DNA of 36,975 nucleotides from a virus (Duplodnaviria > Caudoviricetes): positions 1 through 36,975 of the IMG/VR virus record IMGVR_UViG_3300009506_000107; one strand, 5' to 3'. Shown here in pieces: positions 1,696 to 33,512 of the stretch; position 1 is the stretch's first letter, and every line of letters starts with the position of its first letter. Under the pieces are notes generated by a model. The model did no database searches. It was not told the DNA's origin and saw only the letters and a program-made list of their open reading frames with translations. The translations under genes and the position numbers were made by a program.

Positions 1696-2385
1696 ATGGG
1701 GAAGTATAGGGGAAGTAGGCAAGCGGTGGTGGGTGTTGGGGGAGGTGGGGTTGGTTGGGGGTGGTGGGATCCAAGAGTGGAGGGGTTATGCGTTGTTGCG
1801 GCGTATCAGGCGGTTGGGGTTGGGAGTTATGCGGCGAGTTTGGCAGATTTGAGTGGGAATGGGAATGATGCGGTTAGTGGGGGGACGGGTCCGACATGGG
1901 ATACTGTGAATGGGTGGAGTGGTTTCGGCGTTAGTGCGTGGGTTAATTCAGGGATAACGCCGGCGACGGATCAATCTTATTCGATGTTGGTGCGGTATGC
2001 GGGTGCGACGGCGGGTTATTCTGTGGCGGCGGGGAGCTTCTATAATGGTGCAACCGTTCTCGGGTTTGGTTGTGGGTCCGGTCCTTGGAATGCTGGTTGG
2101 TTTGCTAATGGGACTCCGCAGCAGAATAATACGACGCCGGTAACGGCGGCAGGTGTTTATGGGGTCGTAGGGGATCAGCCGTATTTGGACGGAGTAGCGG
2201 TTGTGGGTCCGCTGGGTGGTTGGGCGGGAGGAGTTACGTCAATGATTGCGATTGGTGGTTTATGGAGTAACGGTGCGCAGGTATCTAATGCTTGGCCGGG
2301 GAGTATTCAGGCGGTGGCAATCTATGAGTGCAATTTATCGGAGGGTGCGGCGGGAGCGGTGTCGGCGGCGATGGCGGCATTATGA
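1696..2385 (+). CDS. LamG/concanavalin A-like beta-sandwich virion protein (229 aa)
   Basis: LADLSGNGNDAV...GPTW at the start and YLDGVAV...IAIGG...WPGSIQAVAIY at the end are typical LamG-like strand motifs. Confidence 0.65.
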   Translation: MGKYRGSRQAVVGVGGGGVGWGWWDPRVEGLCVVAAYQAVGVGSYAASLADLSGNGNDAVSGGTGPTWDTVNGWSGFGVSAWVNSGITPATDQSYSMLVRYAGATAGYSVAAGSFYNGATVLGFGCGSGPWNAGWFANGTPQQNNTTPVTAAGVYGVVGDQPYLDGVAVVGPLGGWAGGVTSMIAIGGLWSNGAQVSNAWPGSIQAVAIYECNLSEGAAGAVSAAMAAL

Positions 2386-4778
2386 AAGGGGAGGGAGACT
2401 TGGCGGATATTGCGTTGTGTATGATTGTGACGGATGGGCGGTTGGAGCAGTTGGAGCGGTGCTTGGAAAGTGCGGCGCCGCATGTGGATGAGATCGTGGT
2501 GGCGCGGACTCGGAAAAAGTGGCCGGCAAAGCAGCGGCGGTTGTTCAAGCGGTTTGGGGTCAAGTCGTTTCCCTATGTGTGGGGGGATGACTTTGCGGCG
2601 GCGCGGCAAGCGTCGTTTGAGGCGGCGAGTTCTCCGTGGCGTATGTGGTTGGATGATGACGATGAGTTGCATGGGGGGGAGCACTTGCGAAAGGTGCTGG
2701 CAGGGTTGAAGGTAGACCGGTGGATGGCGCCGCAGGTAGGGTTGCAAATGCCGTATTACTATGGATATGATGACGTGGGCAATCCTACGACGATTTTGAC
2801 GCGGACTCGGGTTGTTTGGTGGGAGGCGGGATGGCGGTGGCGTGGGCGGATCCATGAGGATTTGGAGCCGTTGGGTGTTGTCGAGATGGCGCGGCAGGCG
2901 GATGTGGTGGTGGTGCATCGTCCTGCCGATGATGATCATGGGGACACTTCGGCGGAGCGCAATTATCGGATACTGTTGCTTGAGCTAGAGGAGGAGGGGG
3001 AAAACTGGCGGACGTTGGGATACTTGGGGCATCAGGCATTTGCTCTTCGGCGGTGGGAGGAGGCGGTGCATTGGTATGAGCGGTATCTGCGGGTGGCGCC
3101 GGCGACTATGCAGCGATGGCAGGCGCAGCATTATCAGGCGGTGTGTTTGATGCGGGCGGAGCGGTGGGCGGATGCGTCGGCGGCGGAGTTTGCGTGTTTG
3201 GAGTTGGCGCCGCAGTACAAGGATCCTTACTTCGGACTGGCGGAGATTGCGTATCAAATGGGGGACGCGGAGGAGGCGGTGTATTGGTATGAGGCGGGGA
3301 TGCGGGCGGAGGTTCCTCCGTCGACGGGTCTATTCTTTAATCCTCTCGATTACCAGTTTAATAACGTGTTGGTGGGGCATTTGGCGTATCAGGCGGTTGG
3401 AGCCTTTGATAAGGCACTTGGAGAGGTGGAGCGGGGATTGCAGGTGCGTCCGCATGATGGCTATTTGTTGGGGCAGCGGGATAAGATGCGGGAGTTGATG
3501 GCGCATGAGGAAAAGGCAAGGGCGTTTGCTGTGGTGGCGTGGCAGGTGGATGCGGAGCAGGTGGGGCGGTTGGAGGAGGCGGTGGGGCAGGAGACGGTGC
3601 GGGCCTTTGGGCCTAGCAGGGATCTCGCGTGGCGGGCGGAGTTTCAGCGGCAGGTGTCGGGTGCTGGATATGAGGGGCAGCGGGTGGTGATTCTCTGCGG
3701 TGATGGGCCGGAGCCGTTTAATCCGGTGGCTGTGGAGGCGGGTATGGGTGGGAGTGAGACGGCGGTGATCCGGGTCGCGGAGGGGATGGCGGCGCGTGGG
3801 GCAAGGGTGCAGGTGTTCAATAATCCGGGGATGGAGGCGGGGGCTTGGAAGCATGGGCGGGGGGAGCTGGGTTTTTGGCCTTGGCGATGGTGGGATCCTG
3901 AGCTGCCGTGTGATTTGTTTGTGGCATGGCGGAGGCCGGAGCTGGGGGCAGGGGCGCCGGCAGGTGTGGAGTCCTGGTTGTGGTTGCATGATTTGCATGT
4001 GGGGGACCGGTTTACTCCGGAGTTAGCGGCGCGGTTTGATTTGATTCGTCCGGTGAGTGCGTGGGCGGGGGAGTATTTGCAGCAGGTGTATCCTTGGTTG
4101 GATGCTGGAAAGGTGGTGCCTACGCGGAACGGTACGGATTGGGCGCCGGGGTCGTTGGAGCTGGGGGCGGTGGTGTGGGATGCAGGTCGGGCGCGGCGGT
4201 GCATCTATGCAAGTTCTCCGGATAGGGGGTTGGAGCACTTGTTGCGGATGTGGCCGGAGGTGCGGTTGGTGGTGGAGGAGGCGGAGTTACATATTTACTA
4301 CGGTTGGGAGGTGTGGGATAGGACTATGGCGGCGCGGCGGGATAAGTGGATGGCTCGGGTCAAGGGACAGATTATGCGCGGACTTGAGCAGCCTGGGGTA
4401 TTCTGGCATGGGCGCGTGTCTAAGGCGGAGTTGCGGGAGGGGTGGCGGTTGTGTGGAACCTGGGCATATCCTACGGAGTTCTTGGAGGTGAGCTGTATGA
4501 CGGCGATGGATGCGATGGCGGCGGGAGCTGCGGTGCTTACATCGGAGCATGGTGCGCTGCCGGAGACGTTGGGGGATGTGGGGATCCGGTTGCATGGGCC
4601 GGCGGGTGGGGTCCGGTATCAGCAGCGGTTCTTGGGTTATCTGACGGAGGTTCTATCTAATGAGGAGATTTGGGTGAAGGCGGCAAAGGGTGGGCCGGAT
4701 AGAGCAAGGGCGTTGCAGTGGCCGGGGGTTGCGGAGGAGTGGTTGCGCCGGATGCGGCGGGAAGGGGATGCAGGATGA
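2382..4778 (+). CDS. Fused GT2 (GT-A) + TPR + GT4-like (GT-B) glycosyltransferase (~798 aa)
   Basis: N-terminal IALCMIV...LERCLES...DEIVV, DDFAAARQ, WLDDDD (DxD) and WRGRIHE match TPR-associated GT2. TPR-like helices follow, then a GT-B domain with GMGGSETAV, WLHD, IYASSPDRGL and E..CMTAMDAMAAG. The start is ATG 2382 (ATGA overlap) or TTG 2400 behind GGAGGGAG. Confidence 0.88.
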   Translation: MKGEGDLADIALCMIVTDGRLEQLERCLESAAPHVDEIVVARTRKKWPAKQRRLFKRFGVKSFPYVWGDDFAAARQASFEAASSPWRMWLDDDDELHGGEHLRKVLAGLKVDRWMAPQVGLQMPYYYGYDDVGNPTTILTRTRVVWWEAGWRWRGRIHEDLEPLGVVEMARQADVVVVHRPADDDHGDTSAERNYRILLLELEEEGENWRTLGYLGHQAFALRRWEEAVHWYERYLRVAPATMQRWQAQHYQAVCLMRAERWADASAAEFACLELAPQYKDPYFGLAEIAYQMGDAEEAVYWYEAGMRAEVPPSTGLFFNPLDYQFNNVLVGHLAYQAVGAFDKALGEVERGLQVRPHDGYLLGQRDKMRELMAHEEKARAFAVVAWQVDAEQVGRLEEAVGQETVRAFGPSRDLAWRAEFQRQVSGAGYEGQRVVILCGDGPEPFNPVAVEAGMGGSETAVIRVAEGMAARGARVQVFNNPGMEAGAWKHGRGELGFWPWRWWDPELPCDLFVAWRRPELGAGAPAGVESWLWLHDLHVGDRFTPELAARFDLIRPVSAWAGEYLQQVYPWLDAGKVVPTRNGTDWAPGSLELGAVVWDAGRARRCIYASSPDRGLEHLLRMWPEVRLVVEEAELHIYYGWEVWDRTMAARRDKWMARVKGQIMRGLEQPGVFWHGRVSKAELREGWRLCGTWAYPTEFLEVSCMTAMDAMAAGAAVLTSEHGALPETLGDVGIRLHGPAGGVRYQQRFLGYLTEVLSNEEIWVKAAKGGPDRARALQWPGVAEEWLRRMRREGDAG

Positions 4779-5857
4779 GGCTCGGCTTTTTTATAGCGGA
4801 TCAGGGTCAATGGGGTGTGTTGGATCCGGCGGATGTGGAGCCGGGGGGTCGGGGCGTTGGTGGGCGGGAGACGGCGTTGATTTATCTGTCGCGTATCCTG
4901 GCGGAGCGGGGGCATGAGGTGGAGGTGTTTGCAAGGTGCAAGCCGCAAACATCGGAGGCGGGTGTGCTTTGGCGAGATGTGCGGGGAATTGAGCGGGTGG
5001 GACAACGGGCGTATGATGTGGCGGTGTCGTTTGCTGGGCCGGCGGTGTGGGCGCGGGGGCTGTTTCCGGGCCGGTACCATGTGGTACATGAGCAGTGTGC
5101 GCATTTGGACGTAGGGAATATGGATGAGTTGGTGGATAGGTATTTCGTTCTGAGTGATTGGCAGGGGTGGCACTTGAACCATTACGATCCGGCGATTGAC
5201 ACTAATAAGATGGTGACGGTGGGTAACGGGGTAGACTTGCGGAGGTATGAGGTGGCCGGTGTGGAGCGGGCGCCTCATAGGGTGTTTTATTCCTCCTCCC
5301 CTGATCGGGGGTTGCATCATCTGCTCTCGGGATGGCGGTTGGTGCGGGAGCAGGTGCCGGATGCTGAGTTGTGGGTGATGTATGAGGTAGGAAAGTGGAT
5401 TGAGGGTGTACGGTGGTTTATGAATGACTTGGGCCGGCGGGCGCAGATTGTGCGGATGTATTATGAGGATGAGCCGGGGACGGATGGGATTACGTTTTGG
5501 GGGATGCTCGACAAGTGGACTCTTGCGGAGAAGCAAATGGAGTGCGCGTTGTGGGCATATCCTGCGGACTTGACGGCGGGGACGGAGACGTTTTGTATTA
5601 CCGGTGTTGAAGCGGCAGCGGCAGGATGCGCGTTGTTGGCAACGGATGGGGATTGTTTGCCTGAGATATATGGGGAGGTGGCGGGGTTGGTGGGGTTGCC
5701 TACGGATGGAGCCTTGTTTGCGGGGGCGGTGGTGAAGATGCTGACGGATCCGGCGATGGCGGCGCAGTATACGCCGGGGATGGAGTTTGCGCGGTTGCAT
5801 ACGTGGGAGCGGGTGGCTGATCGTTGGGAGGAAGCGTTGGCAGGGTTGGAGGGGTGA
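4775..5857 (+). CDS. GT4-like (GT-B) glycosyltransferase (~360 aa), paralog of the C-terminal domain of the upstream gene
   Basis: GVGGRETAL, VGNGVDL, FYSSSPDRGL and ETFCITGVEAAAAG (EX7E motif). ATG 4775 overlaps the upstream TGA. Confidence 0.88.
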   Translation: MRLGFFIADQGQWGVLDPADVEPGGRGVGGRETALIYLSRILAERGHEVEVFARCKPQTSEAGVLWRDVRGIERVGQRAYDVAVSFAGPAVWARGLFPGRYHVVHEQCAHLDVGNMDELVDRYFVLSDWQGWHLNHYDPAIDTNKMVTVGNGVDLRRYEVAGVERAPHRVFYSSSPDRGLHHLLSGWRLVREQVPDAELWVMYEVGKWIEGVRWFMNDLGRRAQIVRMYYEDEPGTDGITFWGMLDKWTLAEKQMECALWAYPADLTAGTETFCITGVEAAAAGCALLATDGDCLPEIYGEVAGLVGLPTDGALFAGAVVKMLTDPAMAAQYTPGMEFARLHTWERVADRWEEALAGLEG

Positions 5858-7790: not shown

Positions 7791-10109
7791 ATGAGACGCG
7801 GACATATCAAGCTGGATGGTGAGTGGTATATGCTCTGGACGGATGAGGATGGGCGTATCAGCCAGGGCAATACGGCGCGGATTACTGGACCGTGGGCGGC
7901 GCAAATGTCTCAGGGTCCGCGGGAGTATCATGATCTAACTGAGGAGTCCGTGCATGTGTGGCATGATGTGTTACAGGGGATAGGGTTTTTCAAGTCTACG
8001 GAGGAGAATACTCTGCGGCGGGCGTGGGCTGATACGCGGAGTGGGGATGTGGTGTTGGGACCGCAGGCGCATGGGTCGGTAGGGTATACTTTGGCCTATC
8101 TTCCGGAGCCGGGGCGTCCGGTGGTGGGAGGTGCGCAGCTCGGGCAGGGATATGGGACGGTTGGGGCGAAAGCAGGGGGAGTGCTAGCGGCAACGGCGGA
8201 TATTGAGTCTGTGCAGGTATTGGTGCGGCGGGTGCCTACGGCGGACTATTGGGATAGTGAGCCGGTGTCTGTGGAGTTAGCCTCTGGTTCAGTGTCGTTG
8301 GCGGCGGAGATCGATATGTTGAAGGATTTGCCAAGGGCGGGGGAGTGGCGTTGGGTTACGGCGCGGGCTGCGTCGTATGAGCGGTTTGGTGCGGGTGACG
8401 TGACGTTGACGTTGACTAATGCGTCGGGTGAGTTGTTGGAGTGGGCGGCGAACTATGAGGGGTCGTTGATGCCGTATTATCGGATGCGGGAGTGGGATGA
8501 TGTGGATGGGACTCCGGTAGGATTTATGGAGTTCAAGGGAGCTGATAGGCAGCGGCGGTTGTATGTGGGGGTCAATCATAAGGTGATGTATTGGGGGCGG
8601 GCGGGGGAAAAGTGGAATGTGGCTCGGCGGTTCCCTGCGGATGTAAAGCAAATGGCGGTATTTGGGGCGTCTACGGGTGCGGCGGCGCAGCTCTTTGTGG
8701 CGTTGAGTGCAAGTCAAGGGATCTGGACGTTTACCGGTGGGAGTGTGTATGGGGTATGGGTGGAGCAAAGTGCGATGGGGCAGGCGTTGGCGGTGCATGA
8801 TGGGATGTTGTGGCGGGCGCAGGGGGCGGAGGTGTGTGGTTCTCGGACTGGATTCGGGGGGTCGTATGGGAATAAGGCGCCGGTAGGGTATGGTGGGATG
8901 CCGGTTCTTGATATGGTGTCTCAGGATGGGCAATTGTTTGTGCGGACGGAGGAGGGTATTTATGCGGTGACGTATCCGGATGAGTACCCTACAACGGGGA
9001 CTCCCATAGCGACGCGGGTGGTTAATCTTGAGTTGGATAGGGCGCCGCATGATGCGCCTATGTTGGTTCCCTATGGGGCGGGTGTTTTGTTTCCTACGTC
9101 CTATGATGTGCAGCGATATGAGGCTGGGTTAATCACAAACATCTCGGCGGGTCGGGGGCAGGCGTTGACGGAGGAGGATGCGTTGCAGTATTGGGCGTTA
9201 GCGCCCACAAGTCGGGGGGTGTTTGCTGCGGTGCAGGGTCCGGGGCATGGGTACAGTGGGCTAATGTTGTATCAGGAGCCGGCGGATGGGCCGGCGGGGT
9301 GGCATTATCTGTACCGTAATCCTATGCCGCGGGAGGAGACGCAGGCTATTTATCTGACGTTGGATGATTTTGATTCGGATGTGGCGCGGCTGTGGTTTGG
9401 GGCGGGGGCAGGGGTGCAGTATGTACGTCTGCCGCAGTGGACTAGGCGGCGGTATCTGTGGAGTGGAGCGGATTATGAGCGGAGCGGGGTGGTGGAGTAT
9501 CCTGCATTTGATGCGAACAAAGCGGCGTTGGTGAAGGACTGGCGGAGGGTCAATGTTCGTGCGGTCAACGCAGCAGCGACGGCGCCGATTACGTTGTTTT
9601 GGACGTTGGCGGATGAGGGAATAGAGTATTTTCGTCCGGGTGCTGGGTATCCTATGGCAACGGTGGGGACTTGGGCAACGTTGGGGCAGGTGACGGAGAG
9701 CGGTATAACGCAGTTCACGTTCCCTGCGGATTCGTATGGCTATAAGGTTCTAGTGCGGGCGGAGCTAGAGACGCAGGATCCGGGGTATACGCCGCGTGTT
9801 GAGGCTGTGGAGCTGTGGTATCAAGATATTGTTCCTCCTTTGCGGGCGTTTCGCGTGGTCCTGGCTCTGCAACGTGGGGCGGGTATGCTGGATGGTGGGC
9901 CTATGATGCGGACGGTGGCGGAGCAGTGGAGTGCGTTGTGTGATTTGGCGGATGAGCCGGAGGGTTTTGAGTTTGAGGATGAGTTGGGGGAGGCTTACAC
10001 CGTCCGGCTTACTCAACTTATGCGGACAAGTTATCGGTTTGGTGAGCGGACGGATGATGCGTTGGAGCCGGAGTATCTAGCGTATGTGGAGATGCTTAGA
10101 ATTGACTAA
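7791..10109 (+). CDS. Putative tail nozzle/head-closure beta-propeller protein (772 aa)
   Basis: Repeated short beta-strand blades (LYVGV, LFVAL, LWRAQG, LFVRTEEGIY, LWFG). Size and position after the adaptors resemble P22 gp10/T7 gp12. No tape-measure or tail-tube genes are present. Confidence 0.55.
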   Translation: MRRGHIKLDGEWYMLWTDEDGRISQGNTARITGPWAAQMSQGPREYHDLTEESVHVWHDVLQGIGFFKSTEENTLRRAWADTRSGDVVLGPQAHGSVGYTLAYLPEPGRPVVGGAQLGQGYGTVGAKAGGVLAATADIESVQVLVRRVPTADYWDSEPVSVELASGSVSLAAEIDMLKDLPRAGEWRWVTARAASYERFGAGDVTLTLTNASGELLEWAANYEGSLMPYYRMREWDDVDGTPVGFMEFKGADRQRRLYVGVNHKVMYWGRAGEKWNVARRFPADVKQMAVFGASTGAAAQLFVALSASQGIWTFTGGSVYGVWVEQSAMGQALAVHDGMLWRAQGAEVCGSRTGFGGSYGNKAPVGYGGMPVLDMVSQDGQLFVRTEEGIYAVTYPDEYPTTGTPIATRVVNLELDRAPHDAPMLVPYGAGVLFPTSYDVQRYEAGLITNISAGRGQALTEEDALQYWALAPTSRGVFAAVQGPGHGYSGLMLYQEPADGPAGWHYLYRNPMPREETQAIYLTLDDFDSDVARLWFGAGAGVQYVRLPQWTRRRYLWSGADYERSGVVEYPAFDANKAALVKDWRRVNVRAVNAAATAPITLFWTLADEGIEYFRPGAGYPMATVGTWATLGQVTESGITQFTFPADSYGYKVLVRAELETQDPGYTPRVEAVELWYQDIVPPLRAFRVVLALQRGAGMLDGGPMMRTVAEQWSALCDLADEPEGFEFEDELGEAYTVRLTQLMRTSYRFGERTDDALEPEYLAYVEMLRID

Positions 10110-10116
10110 GCGGAGG

Positions 10117-10635
10117 ATGCAGGGCGCAGGGTCCGGTGTGGGTGGTGTGGCGGGTCTGCGGGAGCGGTTGAAGGACAAGCGGGCGGCGGAGCGGCGGCGG
10201 AGCCGGGATGCAGCTCGGGGGAGTGTGGCAAAGCGTCCGATGTGGAGGCGGGGGCCGGGGCGCAGGTTGGCGCCGGATCCGTTGGCGGAGTTGGCGTTGC
10301 AGGGGTATGGTTCTCTGCCGGAGAAGGTATTGGATAACTGGTTGCGCCGGCGGGGGTATTCGTATGTGCGGGAGGTGCCGGAGCTGGGTGGGTTTACGGT
10401 TGGTGGGGCGATTCTGGATTTTGTGGTATACGGGTTAGGGACGGCGCCTATTGTTCTTCGGATTAATGGCCGGTATATTCATCGCAACCGGCAGCTAATG
10501 GATGAGCACCAACGGGTGCGGTTGCGCATGCGGGGGTATCATGTGGTTGACTTGTGGGATGATGAGTTGATGGCGGCAGCGGATGCGGACAGGTTGGGCC
10601 GGTATGTGCTGGGTGAGATTCAGGCGCAGGGGTAA
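10117..10635 (+). CDS. DUF559/Vsr-like PD-(D/E)XK-fold protein with an Arg-rich N-terminus
   Basis: SLPEKVL..WL...G....REV, LDFVV, NGRYIH, D..QR..L...GYHVV.LW. The start is uncertain (10084-10117). Confidence 0.7.
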   Translation: MQGAGSGVGGVAGLRERLKDKRAAERRRSRDAARGSVAKRPMWRRGPGRRLAPDPLAELALQGYGSLPEKVLDNWLRRRGYSYVREVPELGGFTVGGAILDFVVYGLGTAPIVLRINGRYIHRNRQLMDEHQRVRLRMRGYHVVDLWDDELMAAADADRLGRYVLGEIQAQG

Positions 10636-10708
10636 AAGGATGAACGCCGGCGATTCGTCGCCGGCGTTCGATTGGGCGGCGGGATCGCATCTCTGCGATC
10701 CGGCGGGT
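10634..10708 (-). ncRNA. Candidate ~75-nt two-hairpin small RNA
   Basis: It lies directly behind a perfect minus-strand promoter. It has an 8-bp stem with a GAGA (GNRA) loop (10682-10701) and a 12-bp perfect stem (10642-10669) followed by AUCCUUUU. No credible ORF is present. Confidence 0.65.
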
Positions 10709-10714
10709 ATCAAT

Positions 10715-10743
10715 ATTATAGCGTATGTTGGCGGGTGTGTCAA
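10715..10743 (-). promoter_or_regulatory. Leftward consensus sigma70/sigmaA promoter
   Basis: The minus strand reads TTGACA (10743-10738), 17 nt, TATAAT (10720-10715). Confidence 0.9.
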
Positions 10744-10761
10744 GTGGGGCGGGGATTCTAC

Positions 10762-10790
10762 TTGACAGGGTTTGTAAAGTATGATATAAT
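10762..10790 (+). promoter_or_regulatory. Rightward consensus sigma70/sigmaA early promoter with extended -10
   Basis: TTGACA 10762-10767, 17-nt spacer, TG-n-TATAAT (TATAAT at 10785-10790), then SD ggaggtg and ATG 10816. Confidence 0.92.
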
Positions 10791-10815
10791 TCTTGGGCAG
10801 GAGGGAGGTGGGTGA

Positions 10816-11013
10816 ATGGTGGAGGATGTTTCGTTTCGGTTTCCCCGTTGGGTTAATGTGCCGTTGGATGCTGCGGATTCTGCTCGGTTTGATGCTGTGC
10901 GCAGCTATTACGGTATCAAGGCAGCGACGGAAGTTGTACGTCTTTTGATTCGTCAAGAGGCGCGGAAGCTGAACCTGCCGGAGACTCGGGCGCAGGTATC
11001 GGAGCCGAATTAG
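10816..11013 (+). CDS. Ribbon-helix-helix (CopG/Arc-like) transcriptional regulator (65 aa)
   Basis: Alternating strand WVNVPL, a helix, a G turn, then ATEVVRLLIRQ. It is the first gene after the early promoter. Confidence 0.65.
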   Translation: MVEDVSFRFPRWVNVPLDAADSARFDAVRSYYGIKAATEVVRLLIRQEARKLNLPETRAQVSEPN

Positions 11014-11023
11014 GATCGGGCGG

Positions 11024-11437
11024 ATGGTGGCGATTACTGTTACCGTGGCGATTGGTATTATGCTGCGGTATGATCCGGGTGTGATGGAGGATGTGGTGCG
11101 CAGGCGGGAAGCGATGGGGCAGATTACGGTGACGGCGCCGTTGACGGCGTATGTTGCGGTAGTGGATTGTCAGTTATTGGGGGAGCCGGTGTGGGTCGTG
11201 TGGCCGGATGGCCGGCGAACGATGCACGTTGTTGGGGACTGTTCTCGGCGGGAGGATAGGGCGTTGCATCAGTCTGAGGGATTGGCGGTGGAGGTGAGTT
11301 ATGATGTAGCGGTGCGGTATTCGTTGCAGCAGGGAGGTTGGTTGCTCCCGTTGGATGGTCCGTTGGGGGAGGTGCGCGTGGTGCAGGAGATTCTTGCGCC
11401 GTTGCGTTCTCCCCGGCGGGCCTTTTTGTATTTGTGA
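11024..11437 (+). CDS. Membrane-anchored RlpA/3D-like double-psi beta-barrel protein (137 aa)
   Basis: Hydrophobic N-terminus, then Y.PG, YVAV.DC..LG..VWV, VVGDC and AVEVSYDVA, which fit the DPBB strand pattern. Confidence 0.5.
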   Translation: MVAITVTVAIGIMLRYDPGVMEDVVRRREAMGQITVTAPLTAYVAVVDCQLLGEPVWVVWPDGRRTMHVVGDCSRREDRALHQSEGLAVEVSYDVAVRYSLQQGGWLLPLDGPLGEVRVVQEILAPLRSPRRAFLYL

Positions 11438-11450
11438 AGGGAGGCGGGCG

Positions 11451-11639
11451 GTGATGGGCGGATTGGTGGATACTCCGATAGGTGGGGAGCCGGGGACCGC
11501 AGGCGGGGATGCTGGGTGCGGGTGGGTGCCGTTTATCCTCACGTTGGCGGTTGCGATTTTCTTGATAGGGTTGGCGTTGGCAGGTGGAAGTGAGGCGCCG
11601 CCTGATGGGGGGGTGATTGTGCCGTGTCTGTTCTTTTGA
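11451..11639 (+). CDS. Small single-pass membrane protein (~62 aa)
   Basis: SD ggagg at 11440 before GTG/ATG. Transmembrane segment VPFILTLAVAIFLIGLALA. Confidence 0.55.
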   Translation: MMGGLVDTPIGGEPGTAGGDAGCGWVPFILTLAVAIFLIGLALAGGSEAPPDGGVIVPCLFF

Positions 11640-11920
11640 GATGGGCCTTTCCTGTGGCGGTGGTCCTGGCTCTGGTTGTGGTGCTGCTTCGGTGGCGCCG
11701 GCGGTGGAGCTGGGCGATGCGGCGGATGGAGCATGTGGAAGCGGAGCGGGCTGCGTGGGTGCAGATTGCGGCGGATAGCGCAGCAGCAGCGGAGATATTT
11801 CGGGAGTTGGAGGATGTGGGGCGCAAGATTGCGCAGCAGGCAGCGGATGAGTCTGTGCCTGTGATGGATGTATGGGAGATTGGTCCGCTGCGGTATTGGG
11901 TTGTGGCTCATAGGAACTAA
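11624..11920 (+). CDS. N-terminally anchored membrane protein (98 aa)
   Basis: Transmembrane segment WAFPVAVVLALVVVLL followed by RWRRRW. Confidence 0.6.
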   Translation: MSVLLRWAFPVAVVLALVVVLLRWRRRWSWAMRRMEHVEAERAAWVQIAADSAAAAEIFRELEDVGRKIAQQAADESVPVMDVWEIGPLRYWVVAHRN

Positions 11921-11944
11921 CATATCAAAAGGGGAGGTGTTACG

Positions 11945-12688
11945 GTGGGAACGGAGCAGGCTAAGTTGTTTGAGGAGGCTGCGGAAGGTGCGGCAAAGTT
12001 CAACTTTGTGCGTGGGTTTGAGGAGAAGTATGAGCAGGGCGTGGTGAACCTGCCGGCGGAGCCTACGCAAGCGCAGGTAACGGCGTTTCAGAAGGCGTGT
12101 GCTAAGGCAGCGTTTCAGCGGGCGGGGAAGTGGGCGGAGTATCAGAAGTGGGCGCAAATGGGGGAGCCGATTAGTGGCCGGGATAGGGACGTGCTGTATC
12201 CTACTATGCGCTCGTTTGTGGGACTCTTGGGCGCGTTGTGTAAAAAGTACATCGTGCCTTTGCGGAGGCCGGATCCGGGTGTGGAGGTGGTGTTGGGTGC
12301 GCAGCGGATGCCTGTGAAGGAACGTGTAAAGCGCATCATTCGGAAGTATGGTCGTACGCCGGCGGAGCGGGCGTATTTTGCGGACGTGTTGGGTTGTAGG
12401 CCAAAGAACCTCTATCATCCCTATAAGGAGATGGAGTTGGAGGGGTGGAGTTGTGCTAAGGCGGCTAATGGGTGGTTGGAGTGGACTCCTCCACCTGAGC
12501 CGGAGCCTGAGCCGGAGCCTGAGCCGGAGCCTGAGCCGGACTTGTGGCCGGAGGATGTGGGTGATATGGCGGCTGCGGCGGCGTATATGCAGGCGGCAAC
12601 GGCGGATGAGTTGGAGGAGTTGGCTAAGGCGAAAGAGATGCGCGTGTTTGCGGCTGTGAAGCGGCGGGCAGAGGAGGGGCGGTTGTGA
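11945..12688 (+). CDS. Hypothetical protein with a possible HTH and a (Glu-Pro)n linker (247 aa)
   Basis: SD ggaggtg. RAYFADVLGCRPKNLY is HTH-like and is followed by PEPEPEPEPEPEPEP. Confidence 0.7.
   Translation: MGTEQAKLFEEAAEGAAKFNFVRGFEEKYEQGVVNLPAEPTQAQVTAFQKACAKAAFQRAGKWAEYQKWAQMGEPISGRDRDVLYPTMRSFVGLLGALCKKYIVPLRRPDPGVEVVLGAQRMPVKERVKRIIRKYGRTPAERAYFADVLGCRPKNLYHPYKEMELEGWSCAKAANGWLEWTPPPEPEPEPEPEPEPEPDLWPEDVGDMAAAAAYMQAATADELEELAKAKEMRVFAAVKRRAEEGRL
12494..12540 (+). repeat. 12-nt coding tandem repeat (CCTGAGCCGGAG) x ~4
   Basis: Direct reading; it encodes (PE)n. Confidence 0.9.
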
Positions 12689-12762
12689 GGCGGTTTTGGT
12701 TCGGTTGGGTTGTCTTGGTGTTGATAGTCCTGGTGATGTGCTGTTGGGGTTGTGCGGTATAG
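12685..12762 (+). CDS. 25-aa hydrophobic, Cys-tailed peptide MRRFWFGWVVLVLIVLVMCCWGCAV (absent from the ORF track)
   Basis: GTGA start/stop overlap with the upstream gene, SD gaggagggg at 12671-12679, TAG at 12760-12762. Confidence 0.55.
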   Translation: MRRFWFGWVVLVLIVLVMCCWGCAV

Positions 12763-12764
12763 GG

Positions 12765-12904
12765 TGTTGGCTCATAGGATGGGAGGTGTGGCCTGGACAT
12801 TCTGCATATCGTGGCGGATCCCATAGTAGACCAACAGCGGAGGAGCGTTCGTGGTGGGCGCTCGAGCGCTCTTTCGCATAATCATCCCCTGTTTGCAGGG
12901 GTTA
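12765..12904 (+). ncRNA. Candidate structured RNA element of three consecutive stem-loops
   Basis: TGTTGG/CCAACA plus ATGGGA/TCCCAT (12765-12836), a 15-bp stem 12837-12851/12863-12877, and CCCCTG-TTTG-CAGGGG (12886-12901). Wobbles are G-U on the + strand. Confidence 0.5.
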
Positions 12905-12955
12905 GAGGTTTTCTTGGATGGATAAAATGAAAGTTGATGATTGTGGAGGTGATTT

Positions 12956-13234
12956 GTGAATGAGGCGGCGGTGGATGCGTTGGCGTTGCAGCGGGTGCGG
13001 GTGCCGGCGGCGGGAGATTTGGAGCGGGTGTTGCGGGGTATGCGGGTGGATATGGGATTGGATGAGGGGTGGAATTTCACGGTTGAGGGGCGGGAGTTGG
13101 TGGTGACTATGACGCCGGCGTTAGATGCTCGGCTTGAGGTGTTGATGCGGGATCTTGGGCGCCTACGGTGGGGGTATGAGCCGGGGCGGATGGTGCAAAT
13201 GGTCCTGCCGGGGGTGGTGGAGCCGTGGAAGTGA
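12956..13234 (+). CDS. Hypothetical protein (92 aa)
   Basis: SD ggaggtga before GTG and typical codon usage. Confidence 0.65.
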   Translation: MNEAAVDALALQRVRVPAAGDLERVLRGMRVDMGLDEGWNFTVEGRELVVTMTPALDARLEVLMRDLGRLRWGYEPGRMVQMVLPGVVEPWK

Positions 13235-13446
13235 AGGCGGTAACGGAGCAGGGGTTTTCTTGTTGGCGGGATAGGATGCCCGCGGAGGAGCTGCCGTTGA
13301 CGTGGGATGGGAGTACAATCTGGTGCGATGGCTGCGATGATGGGCAGCGTTGCGGCAAGAGTACGGTGATTGGATGGCCGTCCGGTATTCATCCGGTGGT
13401 CGACGTAAGGACGGGGCAGGTTATGATGGAGGTGGGCGGTGACTAG
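13231..13446 (+). CDS. Small Cys-containing, possible zinc-binding protein (~71 aa)
   Basis: GTGA overlap with the upstream stop. Four cysteines: C...CDGC.....C. Confidence 0.55.
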   Translation: MKAVTEQGFSCWRDRMPAEELPLTWDGSTIWCDGCDDGQRCGKSTVIGWPSGIHPVVDVRTGQVMMEVGGD

Positions 13447-13466
13447 GGAGCTGCGGGAGGTGCGCT

Positions 13467-14180
13467 ATGCCGTTGCGTGATCCTCCTCTTGGTGTGTGGT
13501 TGGAGCCTTGGTTGATTTACGACATAGACGATCTTGAGCGGGAGACGTATCGGGCGTTGTTGCAGTTGGTCGGCTGGATGTGGGTAACGAAAAAGACGGG
13601 CGGGCCTTTGCGGACAACGGTTGCGGAGTTGGCGCAGCGGTGGGGTATCGGGGAGCGGGCGGTGTATTCTCGGTTGGCGGCGTATCGGGAGCGGGGTTAT
13701 ATCGAGTTGGAGGTGCGGCAGGGTAGGGTGACGGTGCGGCTGGGTAGTGCGGACACAAACAAGCAAACAAACAAACAAACAAACAGCGGTGAAGGTAGGG
13801 ATCATGTGGATATGTGGTCGGATTTGCCTGGTGAACGCAGGGATCATAGTGCAGGCGTAGACCGGCGCAATATTAGTGGTAGTGGTAGTTCTAGTTCTAA
13901 TCCCGATCCTGAGCTACTACACCAAACACCTATTAATGCAGCGGTGCAAGGGAAACTGACATTCTTGGGCGTTCGTCCTGCGGCAGCGATGCAGTTAGCG
14001 GCGGATGAGTGGGTGACTATGGAGCGGGTCTTGCGTTGGGAGGCTGCGTTGCGGGCGGATGAGTCGGTGCGGAGTGTGCCGGCGGTGTTGTTTACGAATC
14101 TTAGAGACCATTGGGAGCCTCCGTTGACGGAGAGTGAGTTGCGCCGGCAGCAGTATGCGGAGCTGGGTGTGCTGACGTAG
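13467..14180 (+). CDS. Phage replication initiator-like protein (N-terminal winged HTH, repeat-rich linker, helical C-terminus; 237 aa)
   Basis: TVAELAQRWGIGERAVYSRLAAYRERGYIE is a wHTH. The central low-complexity linker is encoded by DNA repeats, as in lambda O/DnaD-type initiators. Confidence 0.65.
   Translation: MPLRDPPLGVWLEPWLIYDIDDLERETYRALLQLVGWMWVTKKTGGPLRTTVAELAQRWGIGERAVYSRLAAYRERGYIELEVRQGRVTVRLGSADTNKQTNKQTNSGEGRDHVDMWSDLPGERRDHSAGVDRRNISGSGSSSSNPDPELLHQTPINAAVQGKLTFLGVRPAAAMQLAADEWVTMERVLRWEAALRADESVRSVPAVLFTNLRDHWEPPLTESELRRQQYAELGVLT
13756..13935 (+). promoter_or_regulatory. Putative replication origin within the initiator gene
   Basis: (CAAA)~7 at 13756-13785, two GGTGAAnnnAGGGATCAT copies at 13788 and 13830 (42-bp period), (TAGTGG)2(TAGTTC)2 and an A/C-rich tract that reverses the genome skew. 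Confidence 0.55.
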
Positions 14181-14199
14181 GGAGGGCAAGTGGGGGGTA

Positions 14200-14228
14200 T
14201 TGACTTGGCCTCCGGGTCGTGGTATAAT
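14200..14228 (+). promoter_or_regulatory. Near-consensus sigma70/sigmaA promoter heading the late operon
   Basis: TTGACT 14200-14205, 17-nt spacer, TG-n-TATAAT (TATAAT at 14223-14228). Confidence 0.88.
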
Positions 14229-14235
14229 GGGGCGG

Positions 14236-14286
14236 AAAAGGGCGGCGGACTCTCCTCCGGGCGGGTCCAGCTCTTTTTCTTTTCTT
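14236..14286 (+). terminator. Intrinsic terminator/attenuator immediately downstream of the late promoter
   Basis: The stem AAAAGGGC..GGACUC.CC / GG.GGGUCC.GCUCUUUU is capped by a c(UCCG)g tetraloop at 14255-14260 and followed by UUUUUCUUUUCUU. Confidence 0.8.
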
Positions 14287-14301: not shown

Positions 14302-14553
14302 ATGACGGATACGCAGAGGCAGGAGGGTGGTAACGGCGTGGTGCGTTGGCGCAGCCTGGATAGAGAGGGTTGTCAGTATGGAGTGCGGATGCTGGATCGT
14401 GTCGGGCATGTGGAGGGCAAGGTGGATGACATAGGGGAGGAGGTCAACGATCTCAAGCGCAAGATGGATCGGACATTTTGGGCGTTGGTGATGGCTGCGG
14501 TGGCGTTTGGAAGTGCGGCGTTGATGCTCGGTGTGCAGTTGGCTATGCAGTAG
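14302..14553 (+). CDS. Coiled-coil plus C-terminal TM protein (XhlA-like/holin-like topology, ~83 aa)
   Basis: The heptad VEGKVDDIGEEVNDLKRKMD is followed by TM FWALVMAAVAFGSAALMLGV. The ORF-track start at 14200 is really the -35 box. Confidence 0.6.
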   Translation: MTDTQRQEGGNGVVRWRSLDREGCQYGVRMLDRVGHVEGKVDDIGEEVNDLKRKMDRTFWALVMAAVAFGSAALMLGVQLAMQ

Positions 14554-14559
14554 GGAGGT

Positions 14560-14880
14560 ATGATGGCTGAGAAGTGGGCGCAGGATATGGAGTTGAAGGA
14601 AGGTGGGTTGAAGGGATGGGCGGCGGCGGATAGGCCGGCAAAGCGGCGGGCTGCGTTGCGCAAGTCGGTATCGGCGGATGGCTATGCTACAACCGTCCGG
14701 CGGTTGAATGTCCTGATTAATCTCGATAGTCCGCAGAAGGTGCAGCAGGCAGCTCGGGCGGATATGTCCTGGTTGAAGCGGACATATCGGGAGGAGGAGC
14801 AGAAGGGGCAGCGGGCGCCGGAGCAGCAGCAAGCGGCGCCGGAGATGGGGGGGGATACGTGGCGGACAAGACAGTTTTAG
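14560..14880 (+). CDS. Small basic hypothetical protein (106 aa)
   Basis: SD gggaggt before ATG. Motif RRAALRKSV...G...TVRRLNVL...D..WLK..Y. Confidence 0.7.
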   Translation: MMAEKWAQDMELKEGGLKGWAAADRPAKRRAALRKSVSADGYATTVRRLNVLINLDSPQKVQQAARADMSWLKRTYREEEQKGQRAPEQQQAAPEMGGDTWRTRQF

Positions 14881-15383
14881 AGCAGGATTTGCCAGTGGAG
14901 GCGTTGTTGTATTTGGATGTGTTGGGTATGCCTCTGACGGCGGCGGGCAAGCGGATGACGTATGTTGCGGCGGCAAAGTCGGCGGGGGTGTCCTACTCGA
15001 ATGTATGGAGTTGGCGGCAGAAGTATGCCGGCTTTGCGGAGATGGAGCAGCGGGCGCGGACGGGGCGCCGGGAGTCTACGGGGCGGAAGTTGGCGCGGCA
15101 GTATGTCAATGCGTTGGTGGGTCCAGCGGGGCGGTCGGTGTTGCGTGAACTTGAGGCGGAGGATGGCGATGCTCGGCTTGCGTGGGATGTGCTGAAAACA
15201 GCGGCGGGGATTGCGGATGTGCATGAGGTGCGCGGATCCGTGACGTATACGGCGGAGCAGTTGGCGGAGGACAGGGAGCGGGCAGCGCAGGAATTGGAGG
15301 AGTGGGAACGTGAGCAGGGTATGGGCGATATGGCAGGAGCGGGCGAATCTCCTCCCGGTGTCCCGGCAGCGGGTGGAGTTTGA
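14859..15383 (+). CDS. terS: Terminase small subunit (HTH) candidate (174 aa)
   Basis: HTH YVAAAKSAGVSYSNVWSWRQK..GF, located directly upstream of and overlapping TerL. Confidence 0.7.
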   Translation: MADKTVLEQDLPVEALLYLDVLGMPLTAAGKRMTYVAAAKSAGVSYSNVWSWRQKYAGFAEMEQRARTGRRESTGRKLARQYVNALVGPAGRSVLRELEAEDGDARLAWDVLKTAAGIADVHEVRGSVTYTAEQLAEDRERAAQELEEWEREQGMGDMAGAGESPPGVPAAGGV

Positions 15384-16821
15384 GAAGTGTGCGCGGAGTC
15401 CGGCTTATTTCATAGACCGGTATTGCTGGGGCAAGGATGAGCGGACGGGGGATGTATGGCGCTTCCGGATGTGGCCGGCGCAATCCTGGCTCTTGTCGGT
15501 GGTGATGGGGAGTCCGTTGCTTTGTATTCTCAAGGCAAGGCAGCTTGGTATTACGTGGTTGGCGGTGGCCTATGGGGTCTGGTTGGTGGCGTTTCATGCT
15601 AACCGGTATGTGCTGTTATTCTCGCATCGGCAGGAGGATGCTAAGGAGCTGTTGGGGCGGGCGGTGTTCGTGCTAGAGCATTTGCCTGTGTGGTTGCAAC
15701 CTGCGGTGGCAACGGATAATGCGTTGATGATGGAGACGGAGCGGGGGTCGCGGTTGCAGGCTTTTCCTACAACCGGATCGGAGGGGCGGACGTATGCTGC
15801 ATCCCTGGCTATTGTGGATGAGGCGGGGACGGTGCGCAACCTACTTGATTTGATTACTGCGTTGGAGCCGGTGGTGGAGGGGGGCGGGCGGTTGGTGGTG
15901 TTGGGTACGGCGCGGGGTATTGGCGGGTTCTGGACATTGGTACAACGGATTCGGACGGGGATACTTGGGGGATGGCGCTTCGTCTTTCTTCCCTGGATGA
16001 GTAGGCCGGATCGTGGTGCTGGTTGGAGGGAGGAGCAGCGGGAGCGCTTTACTGAGGAGTGGCGTCTTTATCAGGAGTTTCCGGAGTCGGTGGAGGAGGC
16101 GTTTCAGCTCGGCGGTCGTCCGCGTTTTGATAGGGATAGGGTCAAGCGGTTGTCTTTGCGGGTTCGGCGTCCGCTGCCGGCTGCGGCGGTATTGGCGCGG
16201 GAGGAGATGCCGGAGGAGCCGTTGCTGCGGCAGGCTTTGGTGGATGGGCAGTTGCGGATCTGGCGCCGGCCAAAGGGGGGGCATGTGTATATCCTGCCGG
16301 CTGATACTGCGGAGGGGCTGCCGGGGCTTGATCAGTGTGCGGCTATGGTGTTGGATGCGCGGACGGGTGTTGCGGTGGCGGAGTTGGCGGGGTGGTGGGA
16401 GGATCATAAGTTTGCGCGGATTCTAGCGGCGTTGGGTGTGTGGTATCATCGGGCGTTGCTGGCTGTGGAGCGGAATAATACCGGTGTTTCCGTGCTTAAT
16501 TCGCTTGTCAATGTGGAACGGTATTGGAATTTGTATCAGGCAAGTGAGCCGGGGCAAAGTCCGGGGGGGCGGTTTGGTTGGATTACCACAACGCGGACAA
16601 AGCCGCTGATGTATGATGCGTTGGATAGGGCGTTGCATGATGATGGGCGGCGGTGGTATTCGGAGCAGTTGTTGATGGAAGCGTTGTTATGCCAGCGGCG
16701 GGATGATGGGACAGTGGGGGCGCCGGAGGTAGAGGGTGCGCATGACGATCTCCTTACTGCGTATTGCATTGGGGAGGCGGTGTGGCAGGAGCAGGGGTAT
16801 ATGTATCGTGGGGGAGCGTGA
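15310..16821 (+). CDS. terL: Terminase large subunit (503 aa)
   Basis: Walker A ILKARQLGITW, Walker B LAIVDEAG, coupling motif LGTARG, and nuclease acidic motifs ADTAEG, VERNNTG and HDDLL. SD ggaggag lies 7 nt before GTG. Confidence 0.95.
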   Translation: MSRVWAIWQERANLLPVSRQRVEFEKCARSPAYFIDRYCWGKDERTGDVWRFRMWPAQSWLLSVVMGSPLLCILKARQLGITWLAVAYGVWLVAFHANRYVLLFSHRQEDAKELLGRAVFVLEHLPVWLQPAVATDNALMMETERGSRLQAFPTTGSEGRTYAASLAIVDEAGTVRNLLDLITALEPVVEGGGRLVVLGTARGIGGFWTLVQRIRTGILGGWRFVFLPWMSRPDRGAGWREEQRERFTEEWRLYQEFPESVEEAFQLGGRPRFDRDRVKRLSLRVRRPLPAAAVLAREEMPEEPLLRQALVDGQLRIWRRPKGGHVYILPADTAEGLPGLDQCAAMVLDARTGVAVAELAGWWEDHKFARILAALGVWYHRALLAVERNNTGVSVLNSLVNVERYWNLYQASEPGQSPGGRFGWITTTRTKPLMYDALDRALHDDGRRWYSEQLLMEALLCQRRDDGTVGAPEVEGAHDDLLTAYCIGEAVWQEQGYMYRGGA

Positions 16822-18773
16822 TTATGGAAACGGTTAATCCTGGGGCATGGGCTGACCATGTGCGGCAGGCGTGGGAGATAGCGGATGAGTTGGAAAAGAG
16901 GTACAATCCGCGGGATGTGAAGTGGCGGCGGCTAGATGGGCTATATTTCAATGATGAGGATCCGGGTGGGGCGTCTGAGCCTACGCATCTGGATCCTCTT
17001 GGCTTGGTGAGTACGCGGGGCAATCGGGAGCGGGTGGACTTGGCGAATCGCAAGGCAGCTCGGGAGCTAGAGTTGGGCGTCAATATGGTATCGGCATTGG
17101 AGCCGGTGGTGATGGTGCCGGCTGCGTCTCCGGATGAGGAGGCGTTGCGGGATGCGGAGGAGCGGGAGAAGTGGTTGAACGCATTTTGGGAGGCGAGTGA
17201 GCGGGAGGCGCGTAAAAGTCTGCTAACCCGGATGGCATGGCAGGGGTTTCAGCGGGGTATGGTGGTGGCTCGGGTGATATTTCGGTTGGATCGTTTGGTG
17301 CATCGGGGGACCGGGGAGGAGGCGGAGGAGCGTCCGTATGCGCCGGATGAGATGCCAAGCCGGAGAGTGGCGGAGTATGAGCAGGGGGACTTGCTGCCGG
17401 TGCAGGTGCAGGTGCGGGATCCTCTGAGTGTGTGGCCGGAGTGGAATGAGGATGGTTTGGTGTGTGTGGTGGAGACATTGGAGCGGCGGGTGCGGGATGT
17501 GCGGCGCAGGCATGGGGATGAGGCGTTGCCGGGGCGTGGCGGGGCGGAGGTGGTGGAGTGGCGGGAGTATTGGGATGATGAGCGGTGGATAGGATGGGCG
17601 GATGGGGTCTTGGTGGTGGATGAGGAGCATGGGATCGGAGCGGTGCCGTATGCTATTGAGATGCCGATTTCTGCGGAGTCGGGGCAACCTGAGCGGGAGG
17701 TGCGTCCGTTCTTGGAGCAGGCGGAGGGGATTGCGGCGCGGATTAATCGGATTCTCAGTATTCAGGAGACTACGGCGGTCCAGTATAATAACGATGCGTT
17801 AGCGGTGACGGGGGATGTAACGCATGGGCCGGGGCGGGAGCAGGGTATCAGTCTCCGTCCATTTGAGGTCAATTATCTACGTCCGGGGTCAACGCTTCAA
17901 TGGATTCGGCGGAGTGGTGGGAGTCCTCCGGATACAACGCAGCTCTTGCAGTTGTATTTGCAGGAGTGGGAGCGGGCAACCTGGCCGGCGGAGATGCACG
18001 GTATGGAGCGGATGGCGCGGAGTGGGTATGCGTGGGGGTTGCTTACGGAGTCGGGGCGGATCCGGTTGGTGCCGGTGATAGAGGCTATTCAGGATGTGAT
18101 GGAGCGGGCGGATGAGTTGGTGATGCGGGTATTGGAGCGGGAGCTAGGGCAGTTGGTTGGGGGCTGGGTGCATTTGGATGTAGTGGAGGTTGCGGATAGG
18201 GATGGGCGGGAGGTGCGGACTCGGCGGCGGGTGACGATTGATACGCAGGCGATTGAGGGGGATTATGCCTCTCAGGTGACGTTGGGGCAACCTGCGACGG
18301 CGGATAAGATGCAGCGGGCGTTGATGGGGGAGCGGTTGGCTAAGGGTGGGTTGCTCTCCCGGCGGACGGTGGCGGAGGAATATTTGGGGGTGAGTTCGTG
18401 GGCGGAGGAGCGGGAGCGGTTGGCTCGGGAGCAGGCGGAGCAGGATCCGGTGATGGTGCAGGCTCGGGCGGCGTTGTATCGGGTGGAGGCGTTGCGGCAG
18501 TTGCGGAAGGACTTGGAGGATATGGAGTTGGATGAGGAGGAGATGGCGTTGGTGATGACGCAATTGCAGCAGGTGGGGATGAGTCAGAAGCAAGCGCCGG
18601 CGCCTCCTCCTATGGGTCCGGGGATGGCGATGGGTCCGGGTGGGTTCCCTGCGGAGGCCGGTGGAGCGTATGGGATGCCGGGGGAGGAGCAGTTGGCGAT
18701 GGGTCCGGGCATGGGTCCGGGTCTTGAGCAGGAGATGGGGTGGCCGGGGATGATGCCGGGGGGATATAGATAG
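16818..18773 (+). CDS. Portal protein (~650 aa) with a Pro/Gly/Met-rich C-terminal tail
   Basis: It follows TerL (GTGA overlap). VRDPLSVWP, EHGIGAVPY, SGYA and GLLSRRTVAEEYLGV...EERERL are portal-like, and the size fits. Confidence 0.8.
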   Translation: MIMETVNPGAWADHVRQAWEIADELEKRYNPRDVKWRRLDGLYFNDEDPGGASEPTHLDPLGLVSTRGNRERVDLANRKAARELELGVNMVSALEPVVMVPAASPDEEALRDAEEREKWLNAFWEASEREARKSLLTRMAWQGFQRGMVVARVIFRLDRLVHRGTGEEAEERPYAPDEMPSRRVAEYEQGDLLPVQVQVRDPLSVWPEWNEDGLVCVVETLERRVRDVRRRHGDEALPGRGGAEVVEWREYWDDERWIGWADGVLVVDEEHGIGAVPYAIEMPISAESGQPEREVRPFLEQAEGIAARINRILSIQETTAVQYNNDALAVTGDVTHGPGREQGISLRPFEVNYLRPGSTLQWIRRSGGSPPDTTQLLQLYLQEWERATWPAEMHGMERMARSGYAWGLLTESGRIRLVPVIEAIQDVMERADELVMRVLERELGQLVGGWVHLDVVEVADRDGREVRTRRRVTIDTQAIEGDYASQVTLGQPATADKMQRALMGERLAKGGLLSRRTVAEEYLGVSSWAEERERLAREQAEQDPVMVQARAALYRVEALRQLRKDLEDMELDEEEMALVMTQLQQVGMSQKQAPAPPPMGPGMAMGPGGFPAEAGGAYGMPGEEQLAMGPGMGPGLEQEMGWPGMMPGGYR

Positions 18774-33465: not shown

Positions 33466-33512
33466 GGCGGCGGGTTGGTGTGTGGTTGCCTGACGAATCT
33501 TAGGAGGATTCG

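Follow-up and report, generated by a model that had tools for sequence, protein, structure and literature searches.

Late transcription in lambdoid phages passes the PR'-tR' gate, which one report describes as an always-on late promoter, a short terminated leader and the antiterminator Q, together with a leader RNA named StxS (PMC7547250). Small RNAs (sRNAs) that control phage leaders include CI of P4 and c4 of P1 and P7, which repress, are processed from the operon that they control and are located in immunity regions (PMC4825925, PMC8546580). Synthetic small transcription activating RNAs (STARs) act in trans by binding the 5' stem of an intrinsic terminator upstream of a gene, which leads to read-through, and their output depends on the ratio of RNA to target (10.1101/022772, PMC5648800). 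The preprint among these states that sRNAs activating transcription were not known in nature when it was written (10.1101/022772), and natural sRNA antitermination, in a review, concerns the blocking of Rho-dependent termination in leaders (PMC6582626). No natural phage late-gene case of a trans-acting RNA opening an intrinsic terminator was found in the open-licence literature. Here we describe a predicted 75-nt sRNA in the uncultured bacterial virus record IMGVR_UViG_3300009506_000107, which may have this function for the late genes of its phage. The whole record was analyzed and is referred to below as the window; it comprises 36,975 bases with direct terminal repeats 137 bases long.

The sRNA and the late leader, which lie 3.5 kb apart, are the only short transcripts with both a promoter and a terminator that our scan finds in the genome, and each was defined without reference to the other, from promoters and structure. 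Three promoters stand out, one leftward (10743, 12/12 consensus positions) and two rightward (10762, 12/12; 14200, 11/12), while the rest of the window reaches at most 10/12. A previous sequence-only reading had derived a start at about 10708 from the leftward promoter, and both this promoter and all the letters that it described are present where it had placed them. From 10708 to 10634 the RNA is predicted to fold as ACCCGCC-[8 bp, GAGA loop]-CGCCGCCCAAUC-[12 bp]-AUCCUUUU, with a folding energy of -41.2 kcal/mol (z-score -6.5) that none of 200 shuffled sequences equals. Among 2460 minus-strand 75-mers it has the lowest folding energy (runner-up -31.9), and apart from its two hairpins the window has no perfect inverted repeat of at least 8 bp (loop 3-8). 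Because four bases, AUCC, separate the last stem from a run of just four U, the 3' end is less certain than the 5' end. The small RNA gene is nevertheless highly credible. Rfam gave no matches at E<=5 in the window, including the C4 and IsrK models. An open reading frame (ORF) of 75 codons that starts within the sRNA was rejected, as it has no ribosome site and is antisense to a conserved gene. Contigs from run X2 span the sRNA and the leader, and those from run X1 the leader, with the same letters there; they may be source data of the record and are thus not independent.

The late leader of about 45 nt ends in a predicted terminator ahead of about 33 kb of virion genes. Its hairpin consists of a lower stem GGGC/GCUC, a GGC internal loop, an upper stem GGACUC/GGGUCC and a cUCCGg loop, with a predicted stability of -22.5 kcal/mol (z-score -2.5; 4 of 200 shuffles as stable). 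Because its stem is interrupted, it was absent from the output of a stock scan for terminators, and a custom scan found it. The late gate as such is as strongly credible as the sRNA gene.

In the correct antiparallel order, the two unpaired arms of the sRNA pair with 8 and 7 bases of the leader. This exact complementarity, which the sequence-only reading had reported, was confirmed at 14240-14247 and 14260-14266, where GGGCGGCG and GGCGGGT, 12 bases apart, form the sole exact ordered pair (gap 0-40) outside the sRNA gene. In terms of location the pairing exceeds chance: composition-matched nulls gave p about 0.002-0.007, an order-3 Markov model about 0.002 for a given leader, and within-arm shuffles reached the score of 15 in 0.04% of 5000 trials. 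Of the 3663 minus-strand 75-mers of the genome, 25 (0.7%) match the leader hairpin equally well, or 18 (0.5%) if unpaired bases only are counted. As the statistic was chosen after the match had been seen, these nulls are somewhat optimistic. The sRNA match score at 33 phage translation-start windows was 12 at most, and an anti-Shine-Dalgarno action was rejected on this basis.

Folding models further suggest that the complex is energetically feasible. It was calculated at -71.7 kcal/mol, as a four-way junction, against -63.7 kcal/mol for the separate folded RNAs; the predicted gain during transcription is 12-22 kcal/mol, and overall the complex is more stable than the terminator by 8-22 kcal/mol. 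Binding of the sRNA is calculated to lower the pairing probability of the lower terminator stem from 0.69-0.77 to 0. In the model the leader stays open until about position 14251, and arm 2, the likely seed of pairing, would by itself gain 15-17 kcal/mol. All these values are equilibrium calculations and not binding rates. A third contact between the CCUUUU tail and AAAAGG (14236-14241), also proposed previously, was rejected because it adds no energy (-67.0 with and -67.4 without it). Since folding reveals no alternative structure to which the leader could switch, sRNA binding is expected to break the terminator and raise read-through. Physical pairing of the two RNAs is somewhat more probable than not.

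One possible explanation, which we favor tentatively, is that the 75-nt RNA acts in trans as an antiterminator of the late leader and thereby opens the virion genes. The late promoter, judged from its sequence elements, would fire from the start of infection and its transcript would stop after about 45 nt. Arm 2 would seed on 14240-14247, which is predicted to be unstructured on leaving the polymerase and to keep its GGC as a bulge even once the hairpin has folded, and arm 1 would then take 14260-14266 to give the four-way junction. On a nascent leader bound in this way the terminator could not form, and the polymerase would enter the late genes. Short leaders that have already been released may soak up the first sRNA molecules, so that late genes would be turned on only above a threshold. 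More speculatively, the first early protein might repress the early promoter and free the sRNA promoter, introducing a delay. A single gate could be enough, as the late block showed no strong internal terminator and the coding strand is C-poor (17% C) and unfavorable for Rho. The full picture, a natural STAR replacing Q, in which the sRNA clamps both terminator strands, is timed by a promoter switch and is thresholded by aborted leaders while a relative uses another device, is a still more tentative proposal. Coordinates of the features are given in Table 1.

Table 1 Features of the sRNA locus, the late gate and neighboring genes in the window
Feature	Position	Strand	Basis or remark
Predicted sRNA, 75 nt, two hairpins	10634..10708	-	Start about 10708-10709, end in U run 10637-10634
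sRNA promoter TTGACA-17-TATAAT	10715..10743	-	12/12 consensus match
Arm 1, ACCCGCC	10702..10708	-	Complement of 14260-14266
Hairpin 1, 8 bp, GAGA loop	10682..10701	-	Folding
Arm 2, CGCCGCCC(AAUC)	10670..10681	-	Complement of 14240-14247
Hairpin 2 (12 bp, 10642-10669) and AUCCUUUU tail, terminator-like	10634..10669	-	Folding, promoter/terminator scan
Late promoter TTGACT-17-TG-TATAAT	14200..14228	+	11/12
Late leader hairpin and U tract (14274-14286)	14235..14286	+	Folding, interrupted stem
Arm 2 target	14240..14247	+	5' strand of lower terminator stem and unpaired GGC
Arm 1 target	14260..14266	+	3' strand of upper stem
Early promoter TTGACA-17-TG-TATAAT	10762..10790	+	12/12; back to back with sRNA promoter
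Imperfect palindrome, 21 bp, ACTTGACA-N5-TGTAAAGT	10760..10780	.	Overlies early -35
First early gene, 65 aa	10816..11013	+	Ribbon-helix-helix-like, lead only
Last early gene, helix-turn-helix, replication-initiator-like	13467..14180	+	PHROG 186, E 0.005; weak helix-turn-helix matches
First late genes: small membrane protein, DUF5771-like ORF, terminase small and large subunits	14302..16821	+	
Last late gene, DUF559-like nuclease fold	10084..10635	+	Convergent with and abutting sRNA 3' end

The -35 boxes of the early and sRNA promoters are 18 bp apart. In phage lambda the back-to-back promoters PR and PRM interfere with each other, and by analogy the same is probably true here. The palindrome over the early -35 box is a candidate operator. 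The 65-aa product of the first early gene has an atlas score of 0.93 to a cluster with 14% RHH_1 (ribbon-helix-helix), a RelB/DinJ match at E 0.17 and a predicted structure of an extended segment and two helices, with no fold match at E<=0.001. Inverted pairs CAAGT...ACTTG with a G-rich spacer occur at the divergent promoters (10741-10764) and at the late promoter (14187-14207).

Among the matches listed in terminase, capsid and DUF559 scans, two of which covered 47 and 19 of 64 parts, there was one true relative with DNA, G001 (37.8 kb), which has the same late gene order, a terminase at 58% and a capsid at 71%, and unrelated early genes. In the slot of the first early gene it carries a ribbon-helix-helix gene (Pfam RHH_5, E 1.4e-5, just under the family cut-off). 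Its late gate consists of a promoter, a 65-aa orphan ORF and a strong terminator, followed by the same small membrane gene and terminases. In the G001 late leader (17149-17447; L005 8934-9230) a small hairpin GCCCG/CGGGC overlaps the 5' arm of the terminator, and this leader is a candidate cis attenuator or protein-gated switch. G001 lends support to the gate, and the RNA key is not conserved in it. Further relatives are known as proteins only, by terminase at 59-61% (P0003) and by capsid at 72-88% (P0126-P0130); none of 34 capsid relatives shares the portal.

To place the gate more widely, 138 terminase-family loci with enough upstream DNA were compared. A strong promoter lies within 4 kb in 46 of them, followed by a terminator within 300 nt in 22 and within 100 nt in 13; the 22 of 46, a count without a shuffle control, include the window, G001 and one tRNA-like transcript (L104). 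The terminase-related loci yielded no partner RNA: the best score in 75 leader-transcript pairs was 14, a duplicated leader aside, vs. 16 here, in 19 of the 22 loci (without L134, L157, L248 and the second L175 promoter) and with DNA of mostly 10 kb on either side. An architecture search of 279 loci, with 182 short transcripts and 420 ordered pairs, did not reveal a second sRNA-leader pair; three higher-scoring pairs were duplicated hairpins and one AT-rich pair tied. Homologues of the sRNA, the leader or the early genes were absent from the compared loci, the exact sRNA pattern had no match in viral contigs, and GenBank phages gave one 36-base match at E 0.8 in one search and none in another. 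A 19-base gapped likeness to the sRNA in a terminator of L121 was taken as chance and rejected as a homologue.

In a Herpetosiphon aurantiacus prophage (L139, 8313 and 1301), whose host is cultured, a perfect promoter and a terminated leader of 39 nt precede the late genes, and this arrangement occurs twice, almost unchanged, at a distance of 7 kb. Related structured leaders of 125-154 nt (L163 4593, L167 305, L163 9594) with a AAAGAGAACAGGGCAG-like block and a terminator precede terminase genes in two genomes labelled Verrucomicrobiota. Strong promoters with terminated leaders of 69-123 nt are found upstream of terminase genes in six further loci (L175 3876, L180 1072, L190 1696, L223 9372, L147 2560, L154 9757), and in a large phage (L257 1034-7319) strong promoters are clustered, with a short hairpin RNA and a terminator after each.

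A number of observations weigh against trans antitermination by the sRNA. The coding strand has an extreme base skew (43% G, 17% C; 35% G and 27% C in G001), and GGGCGGCG is present 16 times and GGCGGGT 36 times in the genome, which bears out a caveat of the sequence-only reading that G-rich 7-8-mers are common. Genome-wide, the pairing does not exceed chance: two ordered 15-base sites and three in the wrong order were found, with 3.4 expected from the Markov model. By exact pairing the leader ties for first with the second ordered site (14618-14650, in the second late gene), which ranks above all other windows by cofolding energy. Contrary to the prediction that it would come first by hybrid energy, the leader ranked 40th of 572 windows, and 78th of 578 without the cost of opening the target, so that numerous coding windows equal or surpass it as binding sites; by gapped alignment it ties for first with four other windows. 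The signal was borne out as regards location and not as regards the number of sites. G001 has, inside a coding region, 16 bases that match its own terminator (one site; 6 of 1258 windows), and such scores therefore arise by chance; no leftward promoter or matching RNA was found in that genome. As no sRNA homologue was found, no covariation could be shown. In addition, the leader has almost no linear toehold 5' of its hairpin, and its transcription leaves a short stretch of about 30 nt for binding. The proposal that the sRNA unfolds the terminator to license late genes is supported in its anatomy, direction of effect and thermodynamic feasibility, and its specificity for the leader differs between exact pairing (tied first) and energy (40th).

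The same observations would fit a fortuitous match, with a protein lifting the terminator and the C-rich sRNA pairing with host or phage mRNAs or binding a protein, and G001 has a gate without the RNA. Q, sigma and NusG families were not detected in PHROG, Pfam or NCBIfam searches, so that the earlier statement that no Q-like gene is recognizable holds at the profile level; it does not extend beyond that, as most early proteins are orphans. Above all the protein encoded at 11945 could be an antiterminator. It has 247 aa, a low-confidence structural model (predicted local distance difference test, pLDDT, 48), no informative relatives and no fold match, weak look-alikes (0.77-0.78) in helix-turn-helix clusters and a possible C-terminal helix-turn-helix. 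It is possible that a protein antiterminator acts instead of the sRNA. Q loading needs a -10-like pause element just after the start, and the leader (14235-14273) contains no TAnnnT pause element. This, together with the low location-based probability and the absence of a score above 12 at any of the phage translation starts, makes a purely fortuitous match unlikely.

In a reversal of roles, the released leader of about 45 nt could be a sponge or antisense RNA for an sRNA whose true targets lie elsewhere. The complex is favored by 8 kcal/mol even over the fully folded leader, released leaders should be abundant, and StxS provides a precedent for a terminated late leader serving as an sRNA (PMC7547250). 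The bases that form the terminator, however, lie within the paired sites, and among phage targets no second strong one came to light, which leaves this role, as the main one, distinctly improbable; it can coexist with trans antitermination. The leader of the capsid gene (33465-33512) carries GGGCGGCGGGT, overlapping complements of both sRNA arms, with a hairpin over the ribosome site, and is a possible second sRNA target with a fold that is not significant. As structured targets, 11405-11470 and the capsid leader were rejected (fold z-scores -0.3 and -1.4).

Slightly less probable again is a likeness at the DNA level, where 10674-10708 and 14240-14266 would be diverged direct repeats that arose by duplication, or GGCGGG boxes bound by a phage protein at both promoters. 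A gapped alignment does take in the inner 12 nt of the leader, which resemble hairpin 1 (GGA..TCTC..TCC), further GGCGGG motifs lie at 10678, 10730 and 10748, and CAAGTGGGG is found beside both promoter regions. Nevertheless, colinearity of the shared blocks is lacking between the two promoters, an operator would not be expected to occur nearly as often as GGCGGG does in this genome, and the conserved parts are those left unpaired in the RNA.

It is very improbable that the sRNA acts on the 3' end of the late transcript, as a cis-antisense RNA or a roadblock, and in this way either insulates the early promoter or keeps a toxic DUF559-like nuclease silent. It abuts the stop codon of that gene (10633-10635), the plus strand has no U tract after hairpin 2, and the terminator of the sRNA itself may leak; such a role would leave the leader match unexplained, and G001 keeps the gene without a leftward promoter. 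The least probable alternative, an immunity factor strengthening termination or pausing in the late leader, could draw on the size class, the split single-stranded arms and the termination that follows pairing of CI with two sites (PMC4825925), but the leader terminates by default, binding is predicted to remove the stem beside the U tract, which supports the activating direction proposed earlier, and neither a C4 or IsrK match nor, in profile searches of the window, an integrase or repressor family was detected.

The sequencing runs containing this DNA are labelled marine sediment metagenome, with no RNA run listed among them, which does not bear on expression, and the CheckV completeness listed for the record is only 42%. 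All credible genes of the window are on the plus strand, in an early block (10816-14180) and a late block that runs from 14302 round the circle to 10635 and encodes terminase, a 3956-aa polyvalent protein, capsid and glycosyltransferases. The small membrane protein at its start may be holin-like. The polyvalent protein (19637-31507) has three ART-PolyVal stretches and is only in part colinear with a 3442-aa homologue in G001. Two neighboring glycosyltransferase genes among the virion genes (2328-5857), one with TPR repeats, have G001 counterparts at 48-62%. Of the 80 terminase relatives that score best in named genomes, about 50 belong to Chloroflexota by record titles, at 27-41% identity, which weakly suggests a host from this phylum.

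If true, turning on late genes without a protein would give phages a new means of timing their development and synthetic biology a part that is compact and orthogonal, and it would suggest where to seek the missing antiterminator in many phages that have a late promoter and terminator but no Q. The system is small, with consensus sigma-70 sequences in both promoters and two RNAs under 80 nt, and is cheap to test.

Compared with the CI and c4 RNAs, the phage sRNA is likewise a structured RNA of about 75 nt whose split single-stranded arms are predicted to pair with two leader sites, but it has its own promoter and terminator-like end, lies on the opposite strand 3.5 kb from its target and is predicted to activate. 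Without a model match, in another placement and with the opposite predicted sign, it is not a member of that family. The sRNAs that block Rho resemble it in raising leader read-through in trans, but act on Rho and not on a hairpin. In T-box systems two contacts are made at an intrinsic terminator, and the tRNA ligand stabilizes an antiterminator fold in cis; two contacts and a trans-acting RNA are shared, whereas the phage leader lacks a cis antiterminator fold. With the lambdoid gate the phage shares a late promoter and a short terminated leader, followed by a small membrane gene and packaging genes. It differs in its leader of about 45 nt, in the lack of a detected Q family and in the proposed key, an RNA that would act once, compared to the processive modification of polymerase by Q. 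The closest likeness in mechanism is to STARs, in that an intrinsic terminator (-22.5 kcal/mol, with a U tract) stands between promoter and genes and an sRNA complementary to its 5' stem would form a complex that, in an equilibrium model, excludes the terminator. In contrast to STARs, the phage sRNA is natural, its leader has almost no upstream linear toehold, and its split recognition of 8 and 7 bases would engage both stem strands around a hairpin in place of one long duplex.

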